A DNA stretch of 64,000 bases, taken from Candidatus Oxydemutatoraceae bacterium (lineage in GTDB: Bacteria; Pseudomonadota; Gammaproteobacteria; Poriferisulfidales; Oxydemutatoraceae). The stretch spans positions 1,952,001 through 2,016,000 of the forward strand of contig OZ244717.1 in NCBI GenBank assembly GCA_965218975.1, given 5' to 3'. Positions 4,843 to 60,867 of the stretch are shown piece by piece. Numbering within the stretch: the stretch's first letter is position 1; each line of letters opens with the position of its first letter. Both the position numbers and the translations under genes were made by a program. The notes under the pieces were generated by a model. It made no database searches, was not told where the DNA came from, and worked only from the letters and a program-made list of their open reading frames with translations.

Positions 4843-5752
4843 TTTTTATAAAACACAAGCAAATGCCCTGCATCTGAAATGGGTTGCTGGAAAAGGCAAT
4901 GAAAATCGCACTTTTGTCAAAAACCTAAGCAATTCCAAAACCGGCGTGGTCGGTTATTTTAATTTGATTCATTCGAGCCAAGCGCAGATACTCGGTAACA
5001 CCGAGATGCAGTACCTGCAATCTCTAAAGAAACAAGCTTTGGAAGAAAGCCTAGACCGATTATTTGATCAGGAAACCGTACTCGCAATTATCGCCGACAA
5101 TCGCATCCCGTTCCCCAAGATGAAAGAACTAGCAAACCGACGTCAAGTTGCCCTGTTTACATCAGATCTTCCGGGCGAACAGCTGCTTGATGAGCTACGC
5201 TACTACTTTACACAGCTACTTGCAAACAAAGTCAACCTGCATGGAGTGTTTATGGAAGTTTTAAGTATTGGCGTACTGTTGACCGGCGATAGCGGTGTCG
5301 GCAAAAGCGAACTGGCCCTGGAACTAGTCACCCGGGGGCACCGCCTCATTGCAGACGACGCTCCCCTATTTGCCAGAATTGCACCGGACATTATTATCGG
5401 CACTTCACCGCCGGTAATACAAGATTTTCTTGAAGTAAGAGGATTAGGTATCCTCAATATACGGCATATGTACGGAGACAGCGTGATTAAAATGAGCAAA
5501 TATTTAAAATTGATTATTTCTTTACAGGTGGGTAAAGATGGAGTAACCGATAACAACCGTCTGATAGCTCCGAAACAGACACGGAATGTTTTAGGTATGG
5601 AAATCCCCGTATCGATCATCCCGGTTGCGGCCGGGCGTAACCTTGCAGTGTTGGTTGAAGCTGCGGTGCGCAATCACCTTTTGCGGCTCAGTAATTATTA
5701 TGCCGATACCGACATTATCTCACGTCAACAAGAAGTCATGCGAGAATCATGA
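4811..5752 (+). CDS. hprK: HPr kinase/phosphorylase
   Basis: LHGV, GDSGVGKSE, GHRLIADD, LEVRGLGI, PVAAGRNLA. Confidence 0.95.
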   Translation: MPMNEHPTLHNFYKTQANALHLKWVAGKGNENRTFVKNLSNSKTGVVGYFNLIHSSQAQILGNTEMQYLQSLKKQALEESLDRLFDQETVLAIIADNRIPFPKMKELANRRQVALFTSDLPGEQLLDELRYYFTQLLANKVNLHGVFMEVLSIGVLLTGDSGVGKSELALELVTRGHRLIADDAPLFARIAPDIIIGTSPPVIQDFLEVRGLGILNIRHMYGDSVIKMSKYLKLIISLQVGKDGVTDNNRLIAPKQTRNVLGMEIPVSIIPVAAGRNLAVLVEAAVRNHLLRLSNYYADTDIISRQQEVMRES

Positions 5753-6999: not shown

Positions 7000-7121
7000 A
7001 TTTCGTCTCAGTTATACGATGCCACCCTAAATGGGATGTTTGAAGGGCTTCGGGGGAAGAGTTCGGCAGTAACATTCGGATCGGTGCTTTCTGTCCGTTG
7101 CCGGCATGAGGGCGGTGCAGG

Positions 7122-7223
7122 GTGAGACGCGCTCGGAAAACCGATCGGTTTTCAGCGGCGAACGACCCGACAAGGACGTCGGGGCTGGTGCTCATTGACA
7201 GAACCAAGTCTCGTCATGGACGA
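7122..7223 (+). repeat. Structured insert copy 1a (strand given as GTGAG-first orientation)
   Basis: GTGCAGG|GTGAGACGCG...CATGGACGA. Confidence 0.95.
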
Positions 7224-7228
7224 GCAGG

Positions 7229-7344
7229 GTGAGACGCGCCCGGAAAACCGATCGGTTTTCAGCGGCGAACGACCCGACAAGGACGTCGGGGCTGGCGCTC
7301 ATTGACAGAACCAAGTCTCGTCATGGACGACAGGCACTTTGCCG
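7229..7344 (+). repeat. Structured insert copy 1b
   Basis: GAGCAGG|GTGAG...CACTTTGCCG, then transposase sequence GGTTGCGGCCAG. Confidence 0.95.
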
Positions 7345-7710
7345 GGTTGCGGCCAGATCCGCCGACGCCTCTTGCGCGGCGCTTTGCCGCGGTCATGCAA
7401 GGCGCTGAGCCCAGTGCGGCAATAACGTCGGCGCCAGCGGTACAAAGTGCTGCGACCGACCTTGAATGCATCCAGGGTTGCATCTAGTCCGTGTTTCTCC
7501 CAAAATAACAGGGCATCGTGTTTCTGTTGAGCCGTTGTGTTCATAATAGCCTCTATTTTTGAAGCAAAATTGGCTCATATAGAAACCTTTGATGCGGTGG
7601 CCGATGTGCTGATATTGCATATCGGTCACCTTTTCGAGTCGTGCCGTGAGTCCCATATGTATCTGGCACTATACATCAGTAATATAAAATACTAAAAAAG
7701 ACACAGCCCC

Positions 7711-41909: not shown

Positions 41910-44012
41910 TTATTTAGTAAACTTATTCTTTATGACTTCTTCGGCAACATTGTTTGGCACCTCAACATACTTGGAAAACTCCATCGTATAGGTTGCTCTA
42001 CCTTGTGTCGCCGAACGTAAGTCAGTTGCGTAACCGAACATCTCTTTTAGCGGTACTTCTGCGGCGATAACTTTACCGAGTTGGGCATCCTCCATGCCGT
42101 TTACTAACCCGCGACGGCGATTTAAATCGCCAACGACATCTCCCATATAATCTTCAGGCGTAATCACTTCAACTTTCATCATCGGTTCAAGCAAAACCGG
42201 TAATGCCTGTATCGCACCCTGCTTAAAACATTGAGCGCCGGCAATTTTAAAAGCAATTTCAGACGAATCAACCTCATGAAAGGAACCATCAAATAAAGTA
42301 ACCTTAACGTCAACCAGCGGATAGCTTGCAAGCACGCCGTTTTCCATTTGCTCACGCACACCTTTATCAACCGCAGGAATATATTCGCGAGGGATAACAC
42401 CGCCTGCGATCTTATTCACAAACTCATAACCAGCGCCTCTCTCACGAGGTTCAACTCTAAGCCAAACATGCCCATATTGGCCACGCCCGCCGGATTGCCT
42501 AATGAACTTCCCTTCGTTCTCAACTGTTTTACATATTGTCTCACGATAAGCAACTTGCGGCGCACCAATATTGGCATCCACATTAAACTCACGTTTCATT
42601 CGGTCAACAATAATTTCGAGATGCAATTCGCCCATACCGGAAATAATCGTTTGCCCGGATTCCTCATCCGTCGCAACTTTGAAAGACGGATCTTCTTGCG
42701 CCAACTTCTGCAAGGCAATCCCCATCTTCTCCTGGTCCGCTTTAGTCTTCGGCTCCACTGCCACGGAAATAACCGGTGCGGGAAACTCCATCCGCTCCAA
42801 TACAATATGATTGTTAACGTCGCATAAAGTCTCGCCGGTGGCAATATCCTTTAATCCGACTGCCGCTGCAATGTCGCCGGCACACACTTCCTTGATTTCT
42901 TCGCGTGCATTGGAATGCATCTGCAACAGTCTTCCGACCCGTTCTTTTCTTTTCTTATTTGGATTGTATATTGAATCACCGGATTTCAACACACCTGAAT
43001 AAACCCGGAAAAAAGTTAATGAACCGACAAAGGGATCGGTGGCAATTTTAAATGCAAGAGCAGCAAAATCTTCATCATCGGATGATTGTCTTATGGGAAC
43101 TCTCTTACCATCTTCGGCAACACCCTTCACCGGCGGAATATCAATTGGGGAAGGAAGATAATAAACAACCGCATCAAGCAACGCTTGCACGCCCTTGTTT
43201 TTAAAAGCCGAACCGCATAGTACCGGAACCACCTCATTTGCCAAAGTACGTAACCTCAAACCTTGGCGAATTTCATCCTCAGATAATGTTTCCGATTCAA
43301 GGTATTTATCCATTAAGTGCTCATTAGCTTCAGCAGCAGCTTCTATCATCAGATGCCGCCATCGGCTACATTCCGCTTGCATCCCTTCTGGAATATCCTT
43401 TGTTTGATAGCTGACGCCTTTGTCACTATCATTCCATAAAATCGCTTTTTGGCCAACTAAATCGACAACACCCACAAAATCACTTTCTTTGCCTATCGGC
43501 AACTGCACCGGAACGGGGTTAGACCCGAGACGATTCCGAATTTGATCAACCACCCTTAGAAAATCAGCGCCCGAACGATCCATTTTATTGACAAAAGCAA
43601 TGCGCGGAACATAATACCGCTCCGCTTGCCGCCAAACTGTTTCGGATTGGGGTTCAACGCCGCCAACTGCACAGAAAACGGCGGTCGCCCCATCCAATAC
43701 ACGTAACGATCGTTCAACCTCGATAGTAAAATCAACGTGTCCCGGCGTGTCAATGATATTAATCCGATATTCCTTAAACTTCTGATCCATCCCTTTCCAA
43801 AAACAGGTCGTTGCGGCGGAGGTGATAGTAATTCCACGCTCCTGTTCCTGTTCCATCCAGTCCATTACCGCAGCCCCATCATGCACTTCACCAATCTTAT
43901 GCGAGATGCCGGTATAAAATAAAACGCGCTCGGTAGTAGTGGTTTTACCCGCATCAATGTGTGCCATAATGCCTATATTGCGGTAATTATCTATGGGGGT
44001 TGTTCGCGCCAT
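41910..44012 (-). CDS. fusA: elongation factor G
   Basis: [21 protein letters not shown]. Confidence 0.99.
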
Positions 44013-44061
44013 TGCTTAATTTCTTAATTTGCAGTTTGTATTGTCGAGCCAAACGGTAAAT

Positions 44062-44538
44062 CTACCAGCGATAATGTGAAAACGCTTTGTTGGCTTCGAC
44101 CATTTTCATGGTATCTTCGCGCTTCTTAACAGCCATTCCTTTATTTTCCGCCGCACTCATTAACTCTTGCGCTAATTTTAAACCCATAGACTTATCGCGA
44201 CGTTTGCGTGCCGCCTCGATCAGCCAACGCATCGCTAGAGTACCCTGACGGGTAGGACGCACCTCAACGGGTACCTGATAAGTTGCTCCGCCAACTCGTC
44301 TTGACCGCACTTCAACTTTGGGCTTCACGTTATCCAACGCAGCATTAAATGCTTGTATAACTTGTTCATCGGTTTTACATGTTTTCAGCATGTGGTCAAA
44401 TGCTCCATAAACGATGCCTTCTGCGATCGATTTTTTGCCGTTTTTCATCACAATATTGATGAACTTGGCAACCGTTACATTCTTATATTTAGGGTCATGC
44501 GTGACCTCCCTCTTAGGGACTTCTCGACGCCGTGGCAT
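44062..44538 (-). CDS. rpsG: 30S protein S7
   Basis: [22 protein letters not shown]. Confidence 0.98.
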
Positions 44539-44550
44539 ACTCTCTATCCT

Positions 44551-44925
44551 TTACGCCTTTGTTCTCTTAGTGCCGTACTTAGAGCGTCCCTGCTTGCGAT
44601 CTTCGACACCTTGCGTGTCAAAACTCCCGCGTACAGTATGGTACCGAACTCCCGGTAAATCTTTGACTCGACCACCGCGAATCAACACTACCGAGTGCTC
44701 TTGAAGATTATGCCCCTCTCCTCCGATATAAGCAGTCACTTCGTAACTGTTTGTTAAGCGAACACGCGCAACTTTGCGTAAAGCCGAATTTGGCTTTTTA
44801 GGCGTCGTCGTATAAACGCGGGTACAAACGCCCCGCCTTTGCGGACACCCCTCTAATGCCGGCACATTACTTTTAATAGTTTTTTGTTTCCGCGGTTTAC
44901 GCACTAACTGATTAATAGTTACCAT
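44551..44925 (-). CDS. rpsL: 30S protein S12
   Basis: [21 protein letters not shown]. Confidence 0.99.
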
Positions 44926-45182
44926 ATTGTCATATCATAGTGGTAGAGGTATTTTCAGTGGCTGAACCCTACGGGCAAATCCAACTCCTTAAGGTGCCAA
45001 ATTCAGGACCACCTCTGTCGATAAATAAAAGCAGAATATTCTATTAAAAAAAAGTTAAACAGTCAATATGCTTGTACGATGCCACCCTAAATGGGATTTC
45101 TGAAGGGCTTCGGGGGAAGCGTTCGGCAAGTAACATTCGGATCGGTGCTTTCTGTCCGTTGCCGGCATGAGGACGGCGCAGG

Positions 45183-45284
45183 GTGAGACGCGCCCGGAAA
45201 ACCGATCGGTTTTCAGCGGCGAACGACCCGACAAGGATGTCGGGGCTGGCGCTCATTGACAGAACCAAGTCTCGTCATGGACGA
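45183..45284 (+). repeat. Structured insert copy 2a
   Basis: GGCGCAGG|GTGAG...CATGGACGA. Confidence 0.95.
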
Positions 45285-45289
45285 GCAGG

Positions 45290-45437
45290 GTGAGACGCGC
45301 TCGGAAAACCGACCGGTTTTCAGCGGCGAACGACCCGACAAGGATGTCGGGGCTGGCGCTCATTGACAGAACCAAGTCTCGTCACGGATGACAGACACTT
45401 TGCTGATAACACACCAACAAACACAAAACGGTTTCAT
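45290..45437 (+). repeat. Structured insert copy 2b
   Basis: GAGCAGG|GTGAG...AAAACGGTTTCAT. Confidence 0.93.
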
Positions 45438-45641
45438 AACCGGTCATTGAATGCTTCCGTATCGGCGAATAGCAGGTCTTCTGCATGATCGATACAATCT
45501 TCTTGGACGGTGCGGTTGAAGCGCTCGATGTGCGCGTTCATTTTTGGACACTTGGGATAGGTCAGCCACTGCTCAATCACGGGTGATTCCCGGATGAGCC
45601 GGGCAAACTGTCCTTGAAACTCACTCCCGCCGTCCGTCAGG

Positions 45642-45820
45642 GTGAGACGCGCCCGGAAAACCGATCGGTTTTCAGCGGCGAACGACCCGACAAGGACGTC
45701 GGGGCTGGCGCTCATTGACAGAACCAAGTCTTGTCATGGACGACAGGCACTTTGCTGAAAATCCGGCAGCAAACACAAAATGGTTTCATCAGCTCAAAGA
45801 CTTTACTGCTGCCGAAATTC
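45642..45820 (+). repeat. Structured insert copy 2c (long form)
   Basis: CGTCAGG|GTGAG...TGCTGCCGAAATTC. Confidence 0.93.
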
Positions 45821-46131
45821 TGCCAGGCGCAGGAATGCGGCTGCGTTGCGGCTGTTACAGCGGTTGGTTGCCACTGCTATTGCCATTCGGGTATAGACAT
45901 CAATGGCCATTAAGACGTAGCGGCGCACTCCGTGCTGATAACGCACAATCGTATCCAGGGCGATGCAATGCCCCGGATACTGTGCTTTGAAGTGTTTCGG
46001 CTTGCGTGCCCTGCAACGGCGCTTGAACAATCGTTTTGTTTGTCCTTTGGCATTCAGCCGCTGCGGAATACAGCGCATTTCATCCGGCGCATCCGCGATC
46101 AGGCGCGCAATCGCGCGGACACTCGGGCAGG

Positions 46132-46310
46132 GTGAGACGCGCCCGGAAAACCGATCGGTTTTCAGCGGCGAACGACCCGACAAGGATGTCGGGGCTGAGG
46201 TTCATTCGCAGAACCAAGTTTCGTCACGAACGACAGACACTTTACTGACAACACGGCAACAAACACAAAACGGTTTCATCAGCTCAAAGATTTTACTGCT
46301 GCCGAGATTC
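46132..46310 (+). repeat. Structured insert copy 2d (long form)
   Basis: GGGCAGG|GTGAG...TGCTGCCGAGATTC. Confidence 0.93.
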
Positions 46311-46328
46311 GGATAAGCCTGGCACAGG

Positions 46329-46452
46329 GTGAGACGCGCCCGGAAAACCGATCGGTTTTCAGCGGCGAACGACTCGACAAGGACGTCGGGGCTGGCGTTC
46401 ATTGACAGAACCAAGTCTCGTCATGGACGACAAGCACTTTGCTGACAATCCG
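46329..46452 (+). repeat. Structured insert copy 2e
   Basis: GCACAGG|GTGAG...GCTGACAATCCG. Confidence 0.93.
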
Positions 46453-46842
46453 CTGGCACCTCTTACGCGGCACTTTGCCGCGATCATGCAAGGCGCTGAG
46501 GCCAGTGCGGCGATAACGCCGGCGCCAGCGGTACAAAGTACTGCGACCGATCTTGAATGCGTTCGGGAGTTACAACCCTCCCAAAATAATAGGGCATCAT
46601 ATTTCTGTTGAGCTGTTGTGTTCATAATAGCCTCTATATAGCCTCTATTTTTGAAGCAAAATTGGCTCATATAGAAACCTTTGATGCGGTGGCCGATGTG
46701 CTGATATTGCATATCGGTTACCTTTTTGAGTCGTGCCGTGAATCCCACATGTATCTGGCACTGTACACTGGATAAAAATGGGCTAAAATTAAGGTTTTAA
46801 TCCGGTTATCCGTACATTTCCGGAGATCAGATTGGATGGAAT

Positions 46843-47538
46843 ATGAGAATTCAGCATGTAAATCCGAGCACTACCCCGATGCAGAGACAAGCCAATCTGG
46901 TCTTATTCGACTTAGACAATACTCTGTTGGATGGCGATAGTGACTACGAATGGGGGATATTTCTCTGCAATCATCAATTAGTGGATGCGGATGAGTACCG
47001 GAAACAAAACGCGATCTTTTACTCGGAATATTCCTCAGGAAATCTTGATATTCATGATTATCTACGGTTTGTTCTGAAAACTTTTACACAGCATTCGAAA
47101 GAACAATTATTGGAATGGCGAAAACAATTTGTCAATGAGGTTATTGAACCCTTAATCTCACCGGCAAATAAAGCTCTAGTGAGCCGGCACAAAGAAAACG
47201 GTGATATAACAGTAATTATTACTGCGACTAATCAATTTATCACAGAGCCTATCGCAGAAATCTTTGGCGTTGACGATTTGATCGCGACAGAACTGGAAAT
47301 AGTCAATGGGCAGTTTACCGGCCATCCGCAAGGAACGCCCTGCTTCAAAGACGGTAAAGTCATTTGCTTCAAACAATGGCTAAAACGAGTCCGAACACAG
47401 TTTAGGCAACTCTGGTTTTACAGCGACTCAATAAATGATCTGCCTTTACTTGAATACGCGGACAAACCAATTATAAAAAATGGCGAGGCGGATATCGTTG
47501 CGATTGCCAAGCAACGTAATTGGTCTGTCCTGAGATAA
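46843..47538 (+). CDS. HAD-IB hydrolase (SerB-like / histidinol-phosphatase-like); start may be 46879
   Basis: FDLDNTLLDGDSD, ITATN, YSDSINDLPLL. Confidence 0.88.
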   Translation: MRIQHVNPSTTPMQRQANLVLFDLDNTLLDGDSDYEWGIFLCNHQLVDADEYRKQNAIFYSEYSSGNLDIHDYLRFVLKTFTQHSKEQLLEWRKQFVNEVIEPLISPANKALVSRHKENGDITVIITATNQFITEPIAEIFGVDDLIATELEIVNGQFTGHPQGTPCFKDGKVICFKQWLKRVRTQFRQLWFYSDSINDLPLLEYADKPIIKNGEADIVAIAKQRNWSVLR

Positions 47539-47791
47539 CACCATTATTAAGAAAATCTCCTATTTAATATATAAAAAGAACTCAAGTGGCTATCTGTGGA
47601 AAACGAGGCAAAGGTTTTTTGTCTTTGACAGAAATTCTTCGGGCAAAACATGACGGATTTCATTAAACATTGATTTGCTCTTAAAAAACTGTCGTACTGA
47701 ACAATATCGTTTAGACACGATATACCACCAAGAATTAATCGAATTAATTATCCCGATATCGGACATAACCCATAAAAAAAACAGGAAGCTA

Positions 47792-48727
47792 TCAACAGAA
47801 ATCATAGCCAAATGCTTTATTGAACTGCGTAAAAAAATCTTCTTGCAAGAAAAAATGATGTTGCGTTCCTTTGCAGCTTACTTTGATCGCACCCATCAGG
47901 GAGGCAATTCGTCCGGTCGTTTCCCAATCCAAATCTGCAAGTAGACCATATATCAAGCCGGCACGATAAGCATCGCCGCAACCGGTGGGGTCCACTACCG
48001 CCGTCGGCGTTGCCGGTGGAATCTCCACTTTTTTCCCTTCTATATAAATTGCTGACCCTTTGCTACCATAAGTAACAAATACTGCCCTTACCCGTGTCGA
48101 TAGCTGCGTTAAAGGTAAACCTGTTACTTTCATAATTACATTAGATTCATAGTCATTGCATGCCAGCCAATCGGCGCCCGCAATCAGCGTATCCATCTCA
48201 ACGGGATCAAATAGCGAAACCCCTTGTCCCGGATCAAATATGTAAGGAATTTTAGCATCTCTAAGTTGTCGGGCATGAAGCAACATCCCTTGGCGCGCTT
48301 CAGGAGAAACTAACCCGATACGGATGCCCACATCAGTCGGCACATCCACCAAATGACAATACTTCATCGCACCGGTATGAAATGCGGTAATCTGATTGTT
48401 GTCCAGATCGGTCACAATGAAGCTACATGCCGTAAATTCATCATTGATTTGTTTAACATACTTACGACAAATTAACCGTCGATCCAGCCATCGTGCATAC
48501 TCGCTGAAATCTTTACCGACAGTCCCCATCGGATATGCTTCTATCCCCAATAAATTAAGATTATAGGCAATATTTCCCGCACATCCGCCAAATCCTCGGT
48601 GCATTTCCGGAACTAGAAAAGAAACGTTTAAAATGTGTGATTTTTCCGCGACAATATGGTCCTTAAACTGGCCCGGAAAAACCATAATATTGTCGAATGC
48701 CAATGAACCGCAAATCAGTACAGACAT
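47792..48727 (-). CDS. PfkB-family carbohydrate/nucleoside kinase
   Basis: GGCAGNIAY, FDPGQ, DPTGCGDAYRAG. Confidence 0.9.
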   Translation of the reverse strand: MSVLICGSLAFDNIMVFPGQFKDHIVAEKSHILNVSFLVPEMHRGFGGCAGNIAYNLNLLGIEAYPMGTVGKDFSEYARWLDRRLICRKYVKQINDEFTACSFIVTDLDNNQITAFHTGAMKYCHLVDVPTDVGIRIGLVSPEARQGMLLHARQLRDAKIPYIFDPGQGVSLFDPVEMDTLIAGADWLACNDYESNVIMKVTGLPLTQLSTRVRAVFVTYGSKGSAIYIEGKKVEIPPATPTAVVDPTGCGDAYRAGLIYGLLADLDWETTGRIASLMGAIKVSCKGTQHHFFLQEDFFTQFNKAFGYDFC

Positions 48728-55042: not shown

Positions 55043-56653
55043 ATGAGTACAATAACTAAATTCGGTAGTTCCGCAGAGTATCAATTTGACGTTTTAATCA
55101 TCGGTTGCGGCGCTGCAGGGCTTAGTTTAGCGCTTAAACTACCCGACACGCTGTCAATCGGCCTGTGCGTTAAAGGAGACCTGAAGCAAAGCAGCACATA
55201 CTTAGCACAAGGCGGCATTTCCGCGGTTGTCAGCGATGAAGATTCGCTTGAATCGCATATCGACGACACCATCAATACCGGCGCCGGTTTATGCGATCCT
55301 AAAGTGGTTGCAGCGGTAATTAGTCAAGCGCCATCCACAATTGATTGGCTATGCAAAATCGGAGTGCCTTTTACAACATCACAGGACCAATCCGCCACAC
55401 TGCATCTGCATCAAGAAGGGGGGCACAGCCGAAGGCGCATTGTGCATAGCTATGACCGAACCGGCAAAGCAGTACAAACAGCTTTATATGATTGTGTAGG
55501 TAAAAAAAATAATATCCGCATCATCAATAATCATATTGCCGTCGATTTAGTATTAAATGAAAAAAATGTTTGCGTCGGCGCCTATCTATTCAACTCTGTT
55601 GAACGACAAGTAGAATCGGCGATTGCTCGTATTGTCGTTCTTGCAACCGGCGGCGCGGGCAAAACATATTTATACACGAGCAATTCCGACGGGGCGTCGG
55701 GTGATGGAATCGCAATGGCATGGCGGGCCGGCTGCCGTATCGCTAATATGGAATTCATGCAGTTTCATCCGACTTGCCTCTACCACCAGAAAGCAAAATC
55801 TTTCTTGATCAGTGAGGCATTGCGTGGGGAAGGAGCAAAGCTTCTATTGCCGAACGGCGAGAAATTTGTGCATAAGTTTGACTCACGCGGTGAAACAGCG
55901 CCACGCGACATTGTCGCACGTGCAATCGACTTTGAAATGAAACGACTTGGGCTAAACTATGTTCTCTTAGATATCTCTCACAAAACAAAAGTTTTTCTAA
56001 CCGAACACTTCCCCGCCATTTACCGCCGTTGTCTTAAATTCGGTTATGACCTTGCTAAAGAGGCAATTCCGATAGTGCCCGCAGTACACTATACCTGTGG
56101 CGGCATTATGACTGACCTTACCGGACACACCGATGTTAAAAATTTATATGCGATCGGTGAGACTGCGCATACCGGTTTGCATGGAGCAAACCGAATGGCT
56201 AGTAATTCTCTGCTGGAATGTATTGTTTTTGCGCAATTTGCCGCAGAGTCAATTGCTCACAATATTAATCGGACAAAAACAGCCGGCAATTTCGTCGCCT
56301 GGGATGAAAGTCGCGTTACCTCATCTGAGGAAGAGATAATGATCACACAAAACTGGTCTGAACTCAGACAAATCATGTGGAACTACGTTGGCATTGTACG
56401 CACGCAACAACGCTTAACCCGAGCCCGGCAACGAATCGAATTGCTGCATGCCGAGGTCAACGAATATTATAAAAATTTTCGTCTTAATAAAAACTTAATT
56501 GAACTAAGAAACTTGTGCTTGGTTGCAAGCTTGATCGTTCAATCGGCACTGTCCCGGCATGAAAGCAGAGGATTGCACTATGTCAAAGACTACCCCAATC
56601 TCAACTCGGAACTAAACGGTATTATCACAATATTGAAACCACCTGCTCGCTAA
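55043..56653 (+). CDS. nadB: L-aspartate oxidase
   Basis: AQGGI, EGGHS, QFHPT, HYTCGG, GLHGANRMASNSLLE. Confidence 0.96.
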   Translation: MSTITKFGSSAEYQFDVLIIGCGAAGLSLALKLPDTLSIGLCVKGDLKQSSTYLAQGGISAVVSDEDSLESHIDDTINTGAGLCDPKVVAAVISQAPSTIDWLCKIGVPFTTSQDQSATLHLHQEGGHSRRRIVHSYDRTGKAVQTALYDCVGKKNNIRIINNHIAVDLVLNEKNVCVGAYLFNSVERQVESAIARIVVLATGGAGKTYLYTSNSDGASGDGIAMAWRAGCRIANMEFMQFHPTCLYHQKAKSFLISEALRGEGAKLLLPNGEKFVHKFDSRGETAPRDIVARAIDFEMKRLGLNYVLLDISHKTKVFLTEHFPAIYRRCLKFGYDLAKEAIPIVPAVHYTCGGIMTDLTGHTDVKNLYAIGETAHTGLHGANRMASNSLLECIVFAQFAAESIAHNINRTKTAGNFVAWDESRVTSSEEEIMITQNWSELRQIMWNYVGIVRTQQRLTRARQRIELLHAEVNEYYKNFRLNKNLIELRNLCLVASLIVQSALSRHESRGLHYVKDYPNLNSELNGIITILKPPAR

Positions 56654-57279: not shown

Positions 57280-58023
57280 TGTACGATGCCGATACATTCC
57301 GGATTTTTTAGGGTTGTTTGGGATCAACATCCGGCACGGCGGCTGTCAACCTAAACCGGCATGCGGTCGGCGCATATTGTACCACTTCGAATATGACCAT
57401 AAACACTGTCCCGTCCTAGTGGGATATCTTAGGCGCAGACGACGGATTTCCCTAATCAGGTTTGCGGCCGGATAAAATGCGCTGTATTCCGCAGCGTCTG
57501 AATGCCAAAGGACAAACAAAACGACCGTTCAAGCACCGTTGCAGGGCACGCAAGCCGAAACACTTCAAAGCACAGTATCCGGGGCATTGCATCGCCCTGG
57601 ATACGATCGTGTGTTATCAGCACGGAGTGCGTCGCACCATCTTAACGGCCATCAATGTCTATACACGTATGGCAACAGCAGTGGCAACCAACCGCTGTAA
57701 CAGCCGCAGTGCTGCCGCATTCCTGCGCCGGGCAGAATTTCGGCAGCAGTAAAGTCTTTTGAGCTGATGAAACCGTTTTGTGTTTGTTGCCGGATTTTCG
57801 GCAAAGCGTCTGTCGTCCATGACGAGACTTGGTTCTGTCAATGAGCGCCAGCCCCGATGTCCTTGTCGGGTCGTTCGCCGCTGAAAACCGATCGGTTTTC
57901 CGGGCGCGTCTCACCCTGCACCGCCCTCATGCCGGCAACGGACAGAAAGCACCGGTCCGAATGTTACTGCCGAACTCTTCCCTCAAAGTGCTTCAAAAAT
58001 CCCATTTAGGGTGGCATCGTACA
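57280..58023. mobile_element. Hybrid IS481 remnant (locus 3): related-subfamily fragment on - (57280-~57470) fused to main-family fragment on + (~57467-58023) with one insert
   Basis: Both outer ends read TGTACGATGCC. Minus part encodes LIREIRRLRLRYP and LWSYSKWYNMRRPHAGLG*; plus part encodes PDKMR..ALDTIV..FLRRA, insert, LHRPHAG..WHRT. Confidence 0.8.
57735..57914 (-). repeat. Structured insert copy 3 (long form)
   Basis: + strand GAATTTCGGCAGCA...GCGCGTCTCAC|CCTGCAC. Confidence 0.93.
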
Positions 58024-59680: not shown

Positions 59681-59775
59681 ACTTGTACGATACCACCCTA
59701 AATGGGATTTTTGAAGCGCTTTGAAGGAAGCGTTCGGCAGTAACATTCGGATCGGTGCTTTCTGTCCATTGCCGG

Positions 59776-59918
59776 GTGAGATGCGCCCGGAAAACCGATC
59801 GGTTTTCAGCGGCGAACGACCCGACAAGGACGTCGGGGCTGGGGCTCATTGACAGAACCAAGCCTCGTCATGGACGACAGACGCTTTGCCGAAAATCCGG
59901 CAGCAAACACAAAACGGT
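59776..59918 (+). repeat. Structured insert copy 4a
   Basis: TTGCCGG|GTGAG...AAAACGGT. Confidence 0.92.
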
Positions 59919-60125
59919 CCCATAACCGGTCATTGAATGCTTGCATATCGGCGAATAGCAGATCTTCTGCATGATCAATACAATCTTCTTAGACCGTACG
60001 GTTGAAGCGCCGATGTGTGCATTCATTTTCGGACACCTGGGATAGGTCAGCCATTGCTCAATCACGGGTGATTCCCGAATGAGCAGGCAAACTGTCCTTG
60101 AAACTCACTACCGCCGTCCATCAGG

Positions 60126-60304
60126 ATGAGGCGCGCCCGGAAAACCGATCGGTTTTCAGCGGCGAACGACCCAACAAGGACGTCGGGGCTGGTGCTCATT
60201 GACAGAACCAAGTCTCGTCATGGACGACAGACGCTTTGCCGAAAATCCGGCAGCAAACACAAAACGGTTTCATCAGCTCAAAGACTTTACTGCTGTCGAA
60301 ATTT
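60126..60304 (+). repeat. Structured insert copy 4b (long form)
   Basis: CATCAGG|ATGAG...TGCTGTCGAAATTT. Confidence 0.92.
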
Positions 60305-60317
60305 TGCCCGGCGCAGG

Positions 60318-60431
60318 GTGAGACGCGCTCGGAAAACCGACCGTTTTCAGCGACGAACGACCCGACAAGGATATCGGGGCTGGGCTCATTGACAGAACCA
60401 AGTTTCGTCATGGACGACGGGCGTTTTACCG
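60318..60431 (+). repeat. Structured insert copy 4c
   Basis: GGCGCAGG|GTGAG...GTTTTACCG. Confidence 0.92.
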
Positions 60432-60763
60432 GGTTGCGGCCGGACGCGCTAGCGCCTCTGGCGCGGTGCTTTGCCGCGGTCATACAAGGTGCGCTGAGTC
60501 CAGTGCGGCGATAACACCGCCGCCAACGGTACAAAGTACTGCGACCGACCTTGAATGCGTTCGAGATTACACCCCTCCCAAAATAATAGGGCATCATATT
60601 TCTATTGAAGTTTAGAGCGCTCATGAGCCTCCATTTTGTTAGCTGAATTGGCTATTTTATAGAAACCTTTGATGCGGTGGCCGATGTGTTGATATTGCAT
60701 ATCGGTCACCTTTTTGAATTAAGCCGTGAGTCCCATATGTATCTGGCACTATACAGTTAAACA

Positions 60764-60867
60764 GGCTATTCTATAGAAACCTTTGATGCGGTGACCAATG
60801 TGCTGATATTGCATATCGGTCACCTTTTTATTGAAAAGTATTTGTCCGGTATGTATCTCACTATGCA
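60764..60867 (-). mobile_element. second, degenerate IS481 left-end fragment
   Basis: Repeats TATAGAAACCTTTGATGCGGTG..GATATTGCATATCGGTCACC and a decayed terminus ATGTATCTCACTATGCA. Confidence 0.75.

Follow-up and report, generated by a model that had tools for sequence, protein, structure and literature searches.

The DNA analysed here, called the window throughout, is a stretch of 64,000 nucleotides (nt) from a Candidatus Oxydemutatoraceae bacterium (contig OZ244717.1, positions 1,952,001 to 2,016,000). Within it lie remnants of an insertion sequence (IS) of the IS481 family, and these are interrupted by a small non-coding repeat unit that we named R. The genome holding the window (G000) is one contig of 2,081,000 bp, with 47.7% GC and 99.44% completeness. 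A first-pass annotation had reported 11 copies of R at four window loci, all of them IS481 remnants. Blastn with positions 45637-45820 and a covariance model of the repeat (R1, see below) agreed on this count, with copies at 7120-7346 (two), 45181-46446 (five), 57798-57916 (one, minus strand), and 59774-60431 (three). All four loci are IS481 derived. A 32-mer of R had 10 matches in the window at ≤3 mismatches and none in 100 dinucleotide-preserving shuffles. One weak further R1 match, at 55810-55932 (E 0.094), lies inside a 536-amino-acid (aa) open reading frame (ORF) and was taken as chance.

Locus 2 spans 45073-46767 and is bounded by the terminal repeats TGTACGATGCCA... and ...TGGCACTGTACA. 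We compared it by tblastn with P0001, the closest intact transposase homolog found (349 aa, 55% identity). On the minus strand, the pieces of the transposase follow one another in their native order (P0001 residues 1-87, 92-308, and 314-344) with five R copies between them, exactly as the first-pass annotation had described. R occurs at four junctions in the element (J1 to J4), and the features of the locus are these:

45073-45178, minus strand: right terminal repeat and C-terminal transposase piece (RRPHAGNGQKAPI...), module C; tblastn match to P0001 residues 314-344.
45181-45287, plus strand: R copy 1 at J1, a 107-nt tandem unit; R1 score 50.0 bits, E 4e-13.
45288-45437, plus strand: R copy 2 at J1; R1 score 63.6 bits.
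45438-45636, minus strand: transposase piece M2 (LTDGGSEF...ERFNRT...FNDRL); tblastn match to P0001.
45637-45772, plus strand: R copy 3 at J2; R1 score 64.6 bits, E 2.5e-17 over 45640-45759.
45773-45820, minus strand: copy of X, 48 nt of IS481 coding sequence (NFGSSKVFELMKPFC), attached to R copy 3; tblastn match of P0001 residues 91-121 to 45867-45775.
45821-46127, minus strand: transposase piece M1 (PSVRAIARLIADAPDEMR...ALDT...AAFLRL); tblastn match to P0001.
46128-46262, plus strand: R copy 4 at J3; R1 score 59.5 bits over 46130-46247.
46263-46324, minus strand: native IS481 segment, X plus a 14-mer, encoding CQAYPNLGSSKIFELMKPFC; aligns to MEHPNLGPAKINVLLKPFC of P0001.
46325-46452, plus strand: R copy 5 at J4; R1 score 66.1 bits, E 9.1e-18 over 46327-46446.
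46453-46767, minus strand: N-terminal helix-turn-helix piece of the transposase and left terminal repeat, module H; tblastn match to P0001 residues 1-87.

The IS481-type element end TGTACGATGCC is common to 22 full copies, and module H ends in ...GGCACTGTACA. With the joint marked by a slash, the left boundary of R copy 1 reads GCGCAG/GGTGAG and that of R copy 3 CCGTCAG/GGTGAG. The tail of R copy 2 (...ACAAAACGGTTTCAT) consists of the first 15 nt of X, the IS sequence that adjoins R at J3. Copies 1 and 2 together stand in place of 22 to 23 nt of native IS sequence, with an exit microhomology of CAT. The X copy at 45773-45820 duplicates native X at 46263-46310, and the native segment at 46263-46324 stands between two R inserts, those at J3 and J4.

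R is abundant in G000. Blastn with the 184-nt long form (45637-45820) gave 365 matches, or 355 without short palindrome-induced ones, in 96 loci. Annotation of the genome by modules grouped 335 R matches into 146 arrays, and R makes up 36.1 kb (1.74%) of the genome. By blastn, module C had 93 matches, M2 had 59, and M1 had 35. Enrichment of R in IS481, which the first-pass annotation had proposed checking genome-wide, was clear: IS481-derived sequence is no more than 50 nt away from 135 of the 146 arrays and no more than 200 nt away from 137, versus about 2% of G000 covered by IS-native modules. Four arrays are >1 kb away. Among the 79 right-end pieces that reach the junction region, R follows in 69, native sequence in 6, and something else in 4. 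Almost all R matches (333/335) are co-oriented with their element, in which R is antisense to the transposase. Some copies that seem to be orphans abut an IS-end stump; the stump before R at 699183, for instance, is made up of the initial 19 nt of the IS. R without adjoining IS sequence was found at 405341, at 393283, and as a pair at 149159 and 153094. The pair (149159-153848) consists of two facing arrays of a divergent subtype (GGGTGAGCC...), with a period of 152 or 98. These arrays share their outer flank, IS481 adjoins neither, and they enclose about 3.3 kb with nucleotidyltransferase/HEPN-like and HNH-like ORFs and an IS left-end fragment. Across the genome, with the origin (~0.27 Mb) and terminus (~1.50 Mb) set from cumulative GC skew, the R-sense strand is on the lagging-strand side in 65 of 101 R-bearing clusters, a modest bias.

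Logan contigs from four public runs joined both unique flanks of the locus to IS ends, and their summed depth, which is not a copy number, was much higher over R than over the flanks. Both observations come from independent runs, so an assembly artefact is unlikely. For the most part, these contigs show the other genomic copies; a joint that skips 45181-45435, for example, carries the 22 native letters of empty J1 sites.

The two ends of R behave differently. The left end is GGGTGAG and is exact at every independent junction, including sites outside the IS. The blast end points at the right fall at unit positions 103 (87 matches), 111 (32), 119 (13), 129 (16), 136 (57), 153 (21), and 184 (60). 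They follow context: tandem joints end at 103 or 111, J1 at 153, J2 at 119 or 184, J3 at 184, and J4 at 129 or 119. The first-pass annotation was right that one end is fixed and the other varies, but the variation is not ragged: the right ends form discrete classes that depend on the junction. The termini GGGTGAG... and ...GCAGCAAACAC are not inverted repeats of each other. No target duplication was seen when filled and empty sites were compared; instead, the comparison gives a deletion of 13 to 23 nt or more. R therefore has neither the terminal inverted repeats nor the target duplications of a miniature inverted-repeat transposable element (MITE), in keeping with what had been claimed from the window sequence. 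The description of R as a distinct, structured, non-autonomous, non-coding unit that is no classical MITE, repetitive extragenic palindrome (REP), or CRISPR repeat also holds.

From these ends, the annotation had gone on to propose that R is a non-autonomous element templated by RNA or single-stranded DNA, which target-primed reverse transcription (TPRT) or one-ended HUH transfer by an enzyme encoded elsewhere would direct at IS481, disarming it. One exact end and one variable end with carried flank are formally what 3' transduction or one-ended transposition produces. All inserts share one orientation relative to the transposase, a native CAG stands beside the fixed end at all four sites, and the association with IS481 in G000 is extreme. 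The junctions themselves, the genes of G000, and the occurrence of the family elsewhere, taken up in turn below, point the other way, and we regard this proposal as decidedly improbable.

Identical left boundaries recur in 45 elements (25 plus 20) at J1, 23 at J2, 17 at J3, and 36 at J4. Because the same boundaries and the same target deletions are found in dozens of copies, each junction must have arisen once and then been copied with the element. The junctions were thus inherited by descent and not made anew, which goes against the retroelement or HUH proposal and against the view that R repeatedly invades IS481. Extra left junctions in the right-end piece (positions 19, 26, 39, and 93) lie at native G-runs and are read as secondary deletions ending at the GGG of R.

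Empty sites define what was lost at two of the junctions. J1 is empty at 551700, 450434, and 1500859 and in the element at 118432, and J2 is empty at 279650 and 1256918. The native J1 sequence ...GCAG/GTTATATCAGGTTAAATACTCCC/ATAACCGG... becomes ...GCAG/GGTGAG...GGTTTCAT/AACCGG... when filled, with loss of 22 to 23 nt that encode W-E-Y-L-x-W-Y-N; the insert rejoins the IS at a shared CAT. At J2, 13 nt are missing with the form of R that ends at 119 and about 37 nt with the form that carries X. Alignment to P0001 gives a loss of about 7 codons at J3 and about 15 at J4. P0001 has the order ...MEHPNLGPAKINVLLKPFC-EVQGLAC-PSTRTIARIIADAPDKMR, and the window copy has ...R at J4, CQAYPNLGSSKIFELMKPFC, R at J3, and PSVRAIARLIADAPDEMR. 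Each R insert thus replaces 13 to 48 nt of the transposase gene beside a native CAG. This CAG is native at J1 and J2 by the empty sites, and at J3 and J4 as well by our reading of the aligned frames.

The long form of R (179 to 184 nt) proved to be R plus 48 nt of native IS481 coding sequence (...NLGSSKIFELMKPFC), and longer forms in general carry 15 to 48 nt of the IS flank of the J3 copy. The sequence past ...GCCGAAATTC is IS481, so there is no longer master element; where the first-pass annotation expected a full-length master beyond the long form, only the IS481 coding flank was found. R copy 4, at J3, is the probable source of the copies at J1 and of the X-bearing form at J2, since its downstream flank X recurs on both. 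On this sequence comparison, the J1 insert and the X-bearing J2 insert appear to have been templated from the J3 copy together with its flank. No secondary copy has the natural 3' end: each terminates at 119, at 129, or beyond the unit at +15 or +48, which also argues against a retroelement or HUH origin.

No driving enzyme was detected in G000. There were no matches to the reverse transcriptase (RT) family PF00078 (RVT_1), whose control was positive in 3 of 14 genomes, and none to the IS110 family PF02371 (Transposase_20) or the TnpB zinc ribbon PF07282, both with positive controls. The Y1 HUH family PF01797 had no match in G000 or in three other genomes rich in the repeat family (G041 to G043), again with positive controls. 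The Y2 HUH family PF04986 (Y2_Tnp) likewise had no match in G000, but its control also matched in none of the 14 genomes. Cmscan of 44000-48000 against Rfam 15 returned no intron or ribozyme RNA domain at E≤1. R is therefore without the RT gene and intron domains of a retroelement derived by TPRT or from a group II intron, without the Y1 gene of an IS200/IS605-derived palindrome-associated transposable element or of a REP with its REP-associated tyrosine transposase (RAYT), and without the gene of an IS110- or TnpB-associated element with its bridge or omega RNA. In a 99.4%-complete genome with positive controls, the lack of RT, Y1, IS110, and TnpB genes counts against the driver that had been postulated, as does the lack of Y1 in the three other genomes. 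An enzyme since lost, or one of an unfamiliar kind, could still lie behind R.

The carrier of R is an IS481-family element that survives in G000 as pieces and composites. An uninterrupted 181-aa transposase fragment from another copy matched NF033577 (IS481 family) at 75.3 bits (E 5.6e-21), which falls below the whole-protein cut-off of 224 for this model, as the match covers a fragment only. Among 119 full-length transposase homologs with PF00665 and PF13683, the best had 55% identity. No intact IS481 transposase was found in G000: the best rve match was partial (34.7 bits), and the longest open frame was 246 aa. The IS481 homolog of G004, which belongs to the same family as G000, was considered as an uninterrupted reference and rejected as too distant (72 to 80% nucleotide identity, in short patches only). 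Blastn found about 93 right-end pieces and 88 left-end pieces of the carrier. Both ends (TGTACGATGCCA.../...TGGCACTGTACA) are present in 22 full copies, of which 5 have intact 5-bp direct repeats and 17 have no matching target duplications. The elements range from 378 to 2012 bp, and many lack M1 or M2 with their ends intact. Copies free of R are few and truncated. With J1 and J2 each filled or empty, all four possible states are represented. The other three window loci are composites of the same kind:

7015-7675, plus strand: locus 1, a short composite in which two R copies (7120-7226 and 7227-7346) stand between C and H, without M1 or M2.
57463-58023, minus strand: locus 3, a truncated composite in the opposite orientation with C, R plus X (57735-57918), and M1.
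59684-60829, plus strand: locus 4, a composite of C positions 1-93, R, M2, R plus X, R, and H.

The first junction of locus 4 is a deletion variant, with C position 93 joined to GGGTGAG. The rpsL-rpsG-fusA operon (ORFs at 44551-44925, 44062-44538, and 41910-44012) has locus 2 in its promoter region: rpsL starts at 44925 on the minus strand, and the composite, at 45073, lies 147 nt upstream. Elsewhere in G000, two composites about 38 kb apart (841276-842098 and 879555-880374) share both their left and their right flanks, a sign of a possible segmental duplication. The R array at 326216-326545 adjoins another, more divergent transposase remnant of IS481/IS3-like type (325316-326008), which has 33.6% identity to P0001 over residues 126-346.

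Outside G000, R belongs to a wider family. A conserved 25-mer of R was found exactly in an uncultured Pseudohongiella metagenome-assembled genome (MAG), in two Pseudomonadales MAGs, and in one metagenome contig. A 131-nt copy then gave at least 86, at least 41, and at least 45 matches in the three MAGs, where copies occur both scattered and in tandem arrays that repeat about every 134 nt. The hairpin pattern GAACG-N6-CANGGAYG-N6-CTGG occurred in 17 of 400 other sampled genomes of the class, and a reversed control occurred in none; this count, the R1 survey by families described below, and the tally of intact transposases each include one unpublished genome (G337 or G183). The N6 arms are nearly always complementary, yet they differ from genome to genome. 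G004 had one match to this pattern, and blastn with R against 40 relatives of G000 gave no match outside G000.

Model R1 was built solely from 26 aligned copies of three Pseudomonadales MAGs, and five helices were proposed. The structure pairs 96.9% of cells, versus 25 to 44% with the partners slid, and has compensatory changes in 12 of 29 pairs, a result reached in 0 of 500 shuffles. Built without any G000 copy, R1 matched all 11 window copies over model positions 1-132 (47.6 to 66.1 bits, E 2e-12 to 9e-18) and did so on the R-sense strand only. The local R is without helix P2, and 11 model positions are deleted. Single-sequence folding of R gave a z of about -2 to -2.5 on both strands, with no strand distinction. 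R1 members, in units of about 105 to 135 nt, were found in 33 of 150 other families sampled from the class; at most 22 candidates were scored per genome, so the copy numbers in this survey are lower bounds. R is thus homologous to a wider family that has the same structure and is untied to IS481 elsewhere. Tblastn found no IS481 transposase in 78 external element-bearing loci (234 kb). This speaks against the specialization on IS481 that the retroelement or HUH proposal calls for.

The family is apparently broad and uncatalogued, as judged from Rfam 15 and the literature searched. No Rfam 15 family matched R at the locus (E≤1), and five external loci searched at E≤0.1 gave only tRNAs. Four sequence motifs of the family did not occur in the literature searched, and the literature searched on IS481 repeats and MITEs or on CsrA with REP held no description of it. 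A spliceosomal-like GT...AG intron, an integron attC site, a selenocysteine insertion sequence, a relic of transfer-messenger RNA or 5S rRNA, and an IS630 fragment (peptide VVHDETWF) were also considered and were dropped, no test supporting them.

In other genomes, family copies lie mostly at the 3' ends of genes, and the 5' end GGGTGAG is sharply defined family-wide. At 12 of 36 Pseudomonadales element starts (the tally takes in an orthologous pair and three starts nested within a single locus), the frame of the TGA in GGGTGAG is open for ≥200 codons upstream; the other two frames are so at 4 and 2. This open frame implies that the element supplies the stop codon of a co-oriented gene, and one case was confirmed, a 331-aa ORF that ends ...KRAVRG-TGA at 5393-5395 of L013. 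GGGTGAG forms a Gly-TGA gene end in that locus (5390-5396) and in L011, L012, L022, L024, L027, L041, L051, L056, L061, and L069. In G068, a seven-unit tandem array (L033 1452-2516; G068:C1:1015893-1016957) lies directly upstream of tRNA-Met(CAT). The first 28 nt of this tRNA follow each unit, and the intact tRNA follows the last, an arrangement that parallels the arrays of unit plus flank in G000. In G042 and G043, a module of about 125 nt is embedded in a repeat of about 270 nt with another small palindromic repeat (ATTCTGCG...CGCAGAAT), a mosaic like that of bacterial interspersed mosaic elements (BIMEs). This mosaic repeat was seen at 935-1215 and 12005-12277 of L099 and at loci L105 to L107 of G042. 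Comparison of G043 with G042 over one 14-kb stretch with three elements gave no empty orthologous site; two elements are in both genomes, and the third is at a contig end.

With somewhat more confidence than doubt, we read R in G000 as a local lineage of this widespread multi-hairpin repeat family, which became lodged in one IS481 element, was copied there at the DNA level, and was amplified with its carrier. A single copy would have entered the element antisense to the transposase, probably at J3. From there, DNA-level template switching or illegitimate recombination would have placed copies at other points of that element, with entry where a native CAG or G-run stands beside the GGGTGAG start of R and exit at variable points, once at the 3-nt CAT microhomology. 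Each such event would delete 13 to 48 nt of the transposase gene, and two events would have brought along 15 or 48 nt of the J3 flank. Entry at short homologies, variable exits (119, 129, +15, and +48), target loss, carried flank, and direct orientation within one 1.3-kb element are together the signature of template switching or illegitimate recombination.

The tandem arrays (periods of 98, 107, and about 197 nt) may have formed afterward by slippage between CAGG or GG repeats. The 107-nt period could arise from the CAGG at the left joint and the CAGG at unit positions 107-110, and the 98-nt period from ...ATGG/GTGAG. The period of about 197 nt would reflect unequal exchange involving R at J3 and R at J4, which lie on either side of the 62-nt native segment. 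Slippage at hairpin-forming repeats is established; transposition would give complete ends. The disabled composite, its IS ends intact, would then have been multiplied, likely in trans by a transposase now lost, as occurs with MITE-like derivatives, and its copies would later have recombined among themselves. Because the 335 to 355 or so copies of R (1.7% of the genome) would come from amplification of the carrier, R looks like a hitch-hiker on IS481 and no specialized parasite.

Several points weigh against this history. No empty J3 or J4 site exists in G000, and the deletions there rest on a homolog of 55% identity. No intact IS481 transposase is left, so mobilization in trans is something that we infer. 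The 5' end of R is exactly GGGTGAG at every junction, which could reflect an end-specific enzymatic mechanism instead of microhomology, and the roughly 100 sites per genome that the family occupies elsewhere call for a genuine means of moving. Finally, the order of events may have been other than R first and amplification second. R identity is equal within and between junction classes (0.91 to 0.93), and gene conversion among pre-existing copies would give the same picture. R copies do share a junction label with their nearest neighbour in 75 of 266 cases (shuffled mean 39.9, maximum 61), but clustering by junction was not seen beyond the 98-nt tandem class.

This last point leads to a different order of events, in which an intact IS481 would first have reached about 90 copies and R would have entered one of them and spread site by site through homologous recombination or gene conversion. 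The four filled and empty combinations of J1 and J2, the homogenization of R across junctions, and the 17 of 22 full copies that have no matching duplications, a sign of frequent recombination between copies, all fit such a course. It would, however, need about 90% of the copies to have been converted at J1 (69 of 79 are filled), with no intact or R-free full-length copy left, and many of the short derivatives resemble amplified non-autonomous elements. We consider it unlikely as the main course of events. It is not exclusive of early insertion followed by carrier amplification, in which conversion also forms a part.

The hairpins of the family raise the matter of function. The loops of helices 4 and 5 read ACAAGGAYGU and CAnGGAyG (also given as CAUGGACG), their GGA is invariant in 26 of 26 aligned Pseudomonadales copies, and their stems covary. 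As given in PMC4347634, the consensus for CsrA/RsmA obtained by systematic evolution of ligands by exponential enrichment (SELEX) is RUACARGGAUGU with GGA in a hairpin loop, and the family loops agree with it. G000 has one csrA gene and no match to the Rfam models for CsrB (RF00018) and RsmZ (RF00166). R arrays might then be selected, either as a CsrA-binding module or sponge or, R being always antisense to the transposase, as an antisense silencer of IS481. We hold this to be quite improbable. The unit has no promoter or terminator of its own: a consensus scan gave four promoter-like sites versus 1.9 expected, none of them inside R. Hundreds of copies in dead mobile DNA are typical of neutral amplification, and the match to the CsrA motif is a resemblance of sequence only. 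The CsrA link is a lead. A broader version extends it to the whole family, which would be a mobile RNA cassette of five helices and about 120 nt, inserted at gene 3' ends, where it often provides the TGA stop, and moved in an end-specific manner without a known transposase, RT, or HUH enzyme. Its GGA hairpins would rewire or buffer the Csr/Rsm regulon, and the G000 copies would serve as CsrA sponge, antisense silencer, or both. This, too, strikes us as rather doubtful.

The tempting claim of a new retro- or HUH-type parasite of IS481 is thereby removed, and a history supported by junctions stands in its place. The repeat family itself, found at tens to hundreds of copies in roughly one in five of the taxonomic families sampled across the class, may matter more than the IS481 story. 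If it is undescribed, it suits two questions: how small bacterial repeats without an enzyme of their own move, and whether a global regulator can have binding sites on dispersed repeats.

Among known systems, REP/BIME and enterobacterial repetitive intergenic consensus (ERIC) sequences resemble the R family in being short (about 100 to 135 nt here), non-coding, hairpin rich, and of high copy number. In other genomes the family is also placed like them, mostly at gene 3' ends and in mosaics and tandem clusters with small repeats. It differs in its five helices, fixed 5' GGGTGAG, two GGA loops, and lack of a GTAG tag. It has no RAYT/Y1 gene in G000 or the three family-rich genomes and is absent from Rfam 15, and in G000 it lies almost wholly within one IS family.

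The carrier, for its part, resembles MITE-like IS derivatives. It keeps both IS481-type terminal repeats, with 5-bp duplications in 5 of 22 copies, has no working transposase, and occurs in shortened or rearranged forms that are far more numerous than any autonomous copy. Unlike these derivatives, it does not have a simple deletion for an interior: a foreign structured repeat and its tandem arrays interrupt the transposase gene at four sites, and no autonomous partner is left.

CsrB and RsmX/Y/Z resemble the family in their repeated units with loop GGA, which in R would correspond, by motif, to the CsrA consensus. Multicopy or tandem rsm genes are present in some pseudomonads. The family differs from these RNAs in that the Rfam models for CsrB and RsmZ did not match it, the unit has just two GGA loops and neither a promoter nor a terminator, and its copies are dispersed and number tens to hundreds.

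Finally, R inserts share with L1-type 3' transduction and with IS91/ISCR elements one constant end, one variable end, and the co-transfer of adjacent donor sequence. Unlike those systems, they show target deletions, microhomologies at both joints, and some stops inside the unit. All of the events lie within one 1.3-kb element in direct orientation, and no RT or HUH gene was detected. Polymerase template switching fits the R inserts better than transfer of the L1 or IS91 type.

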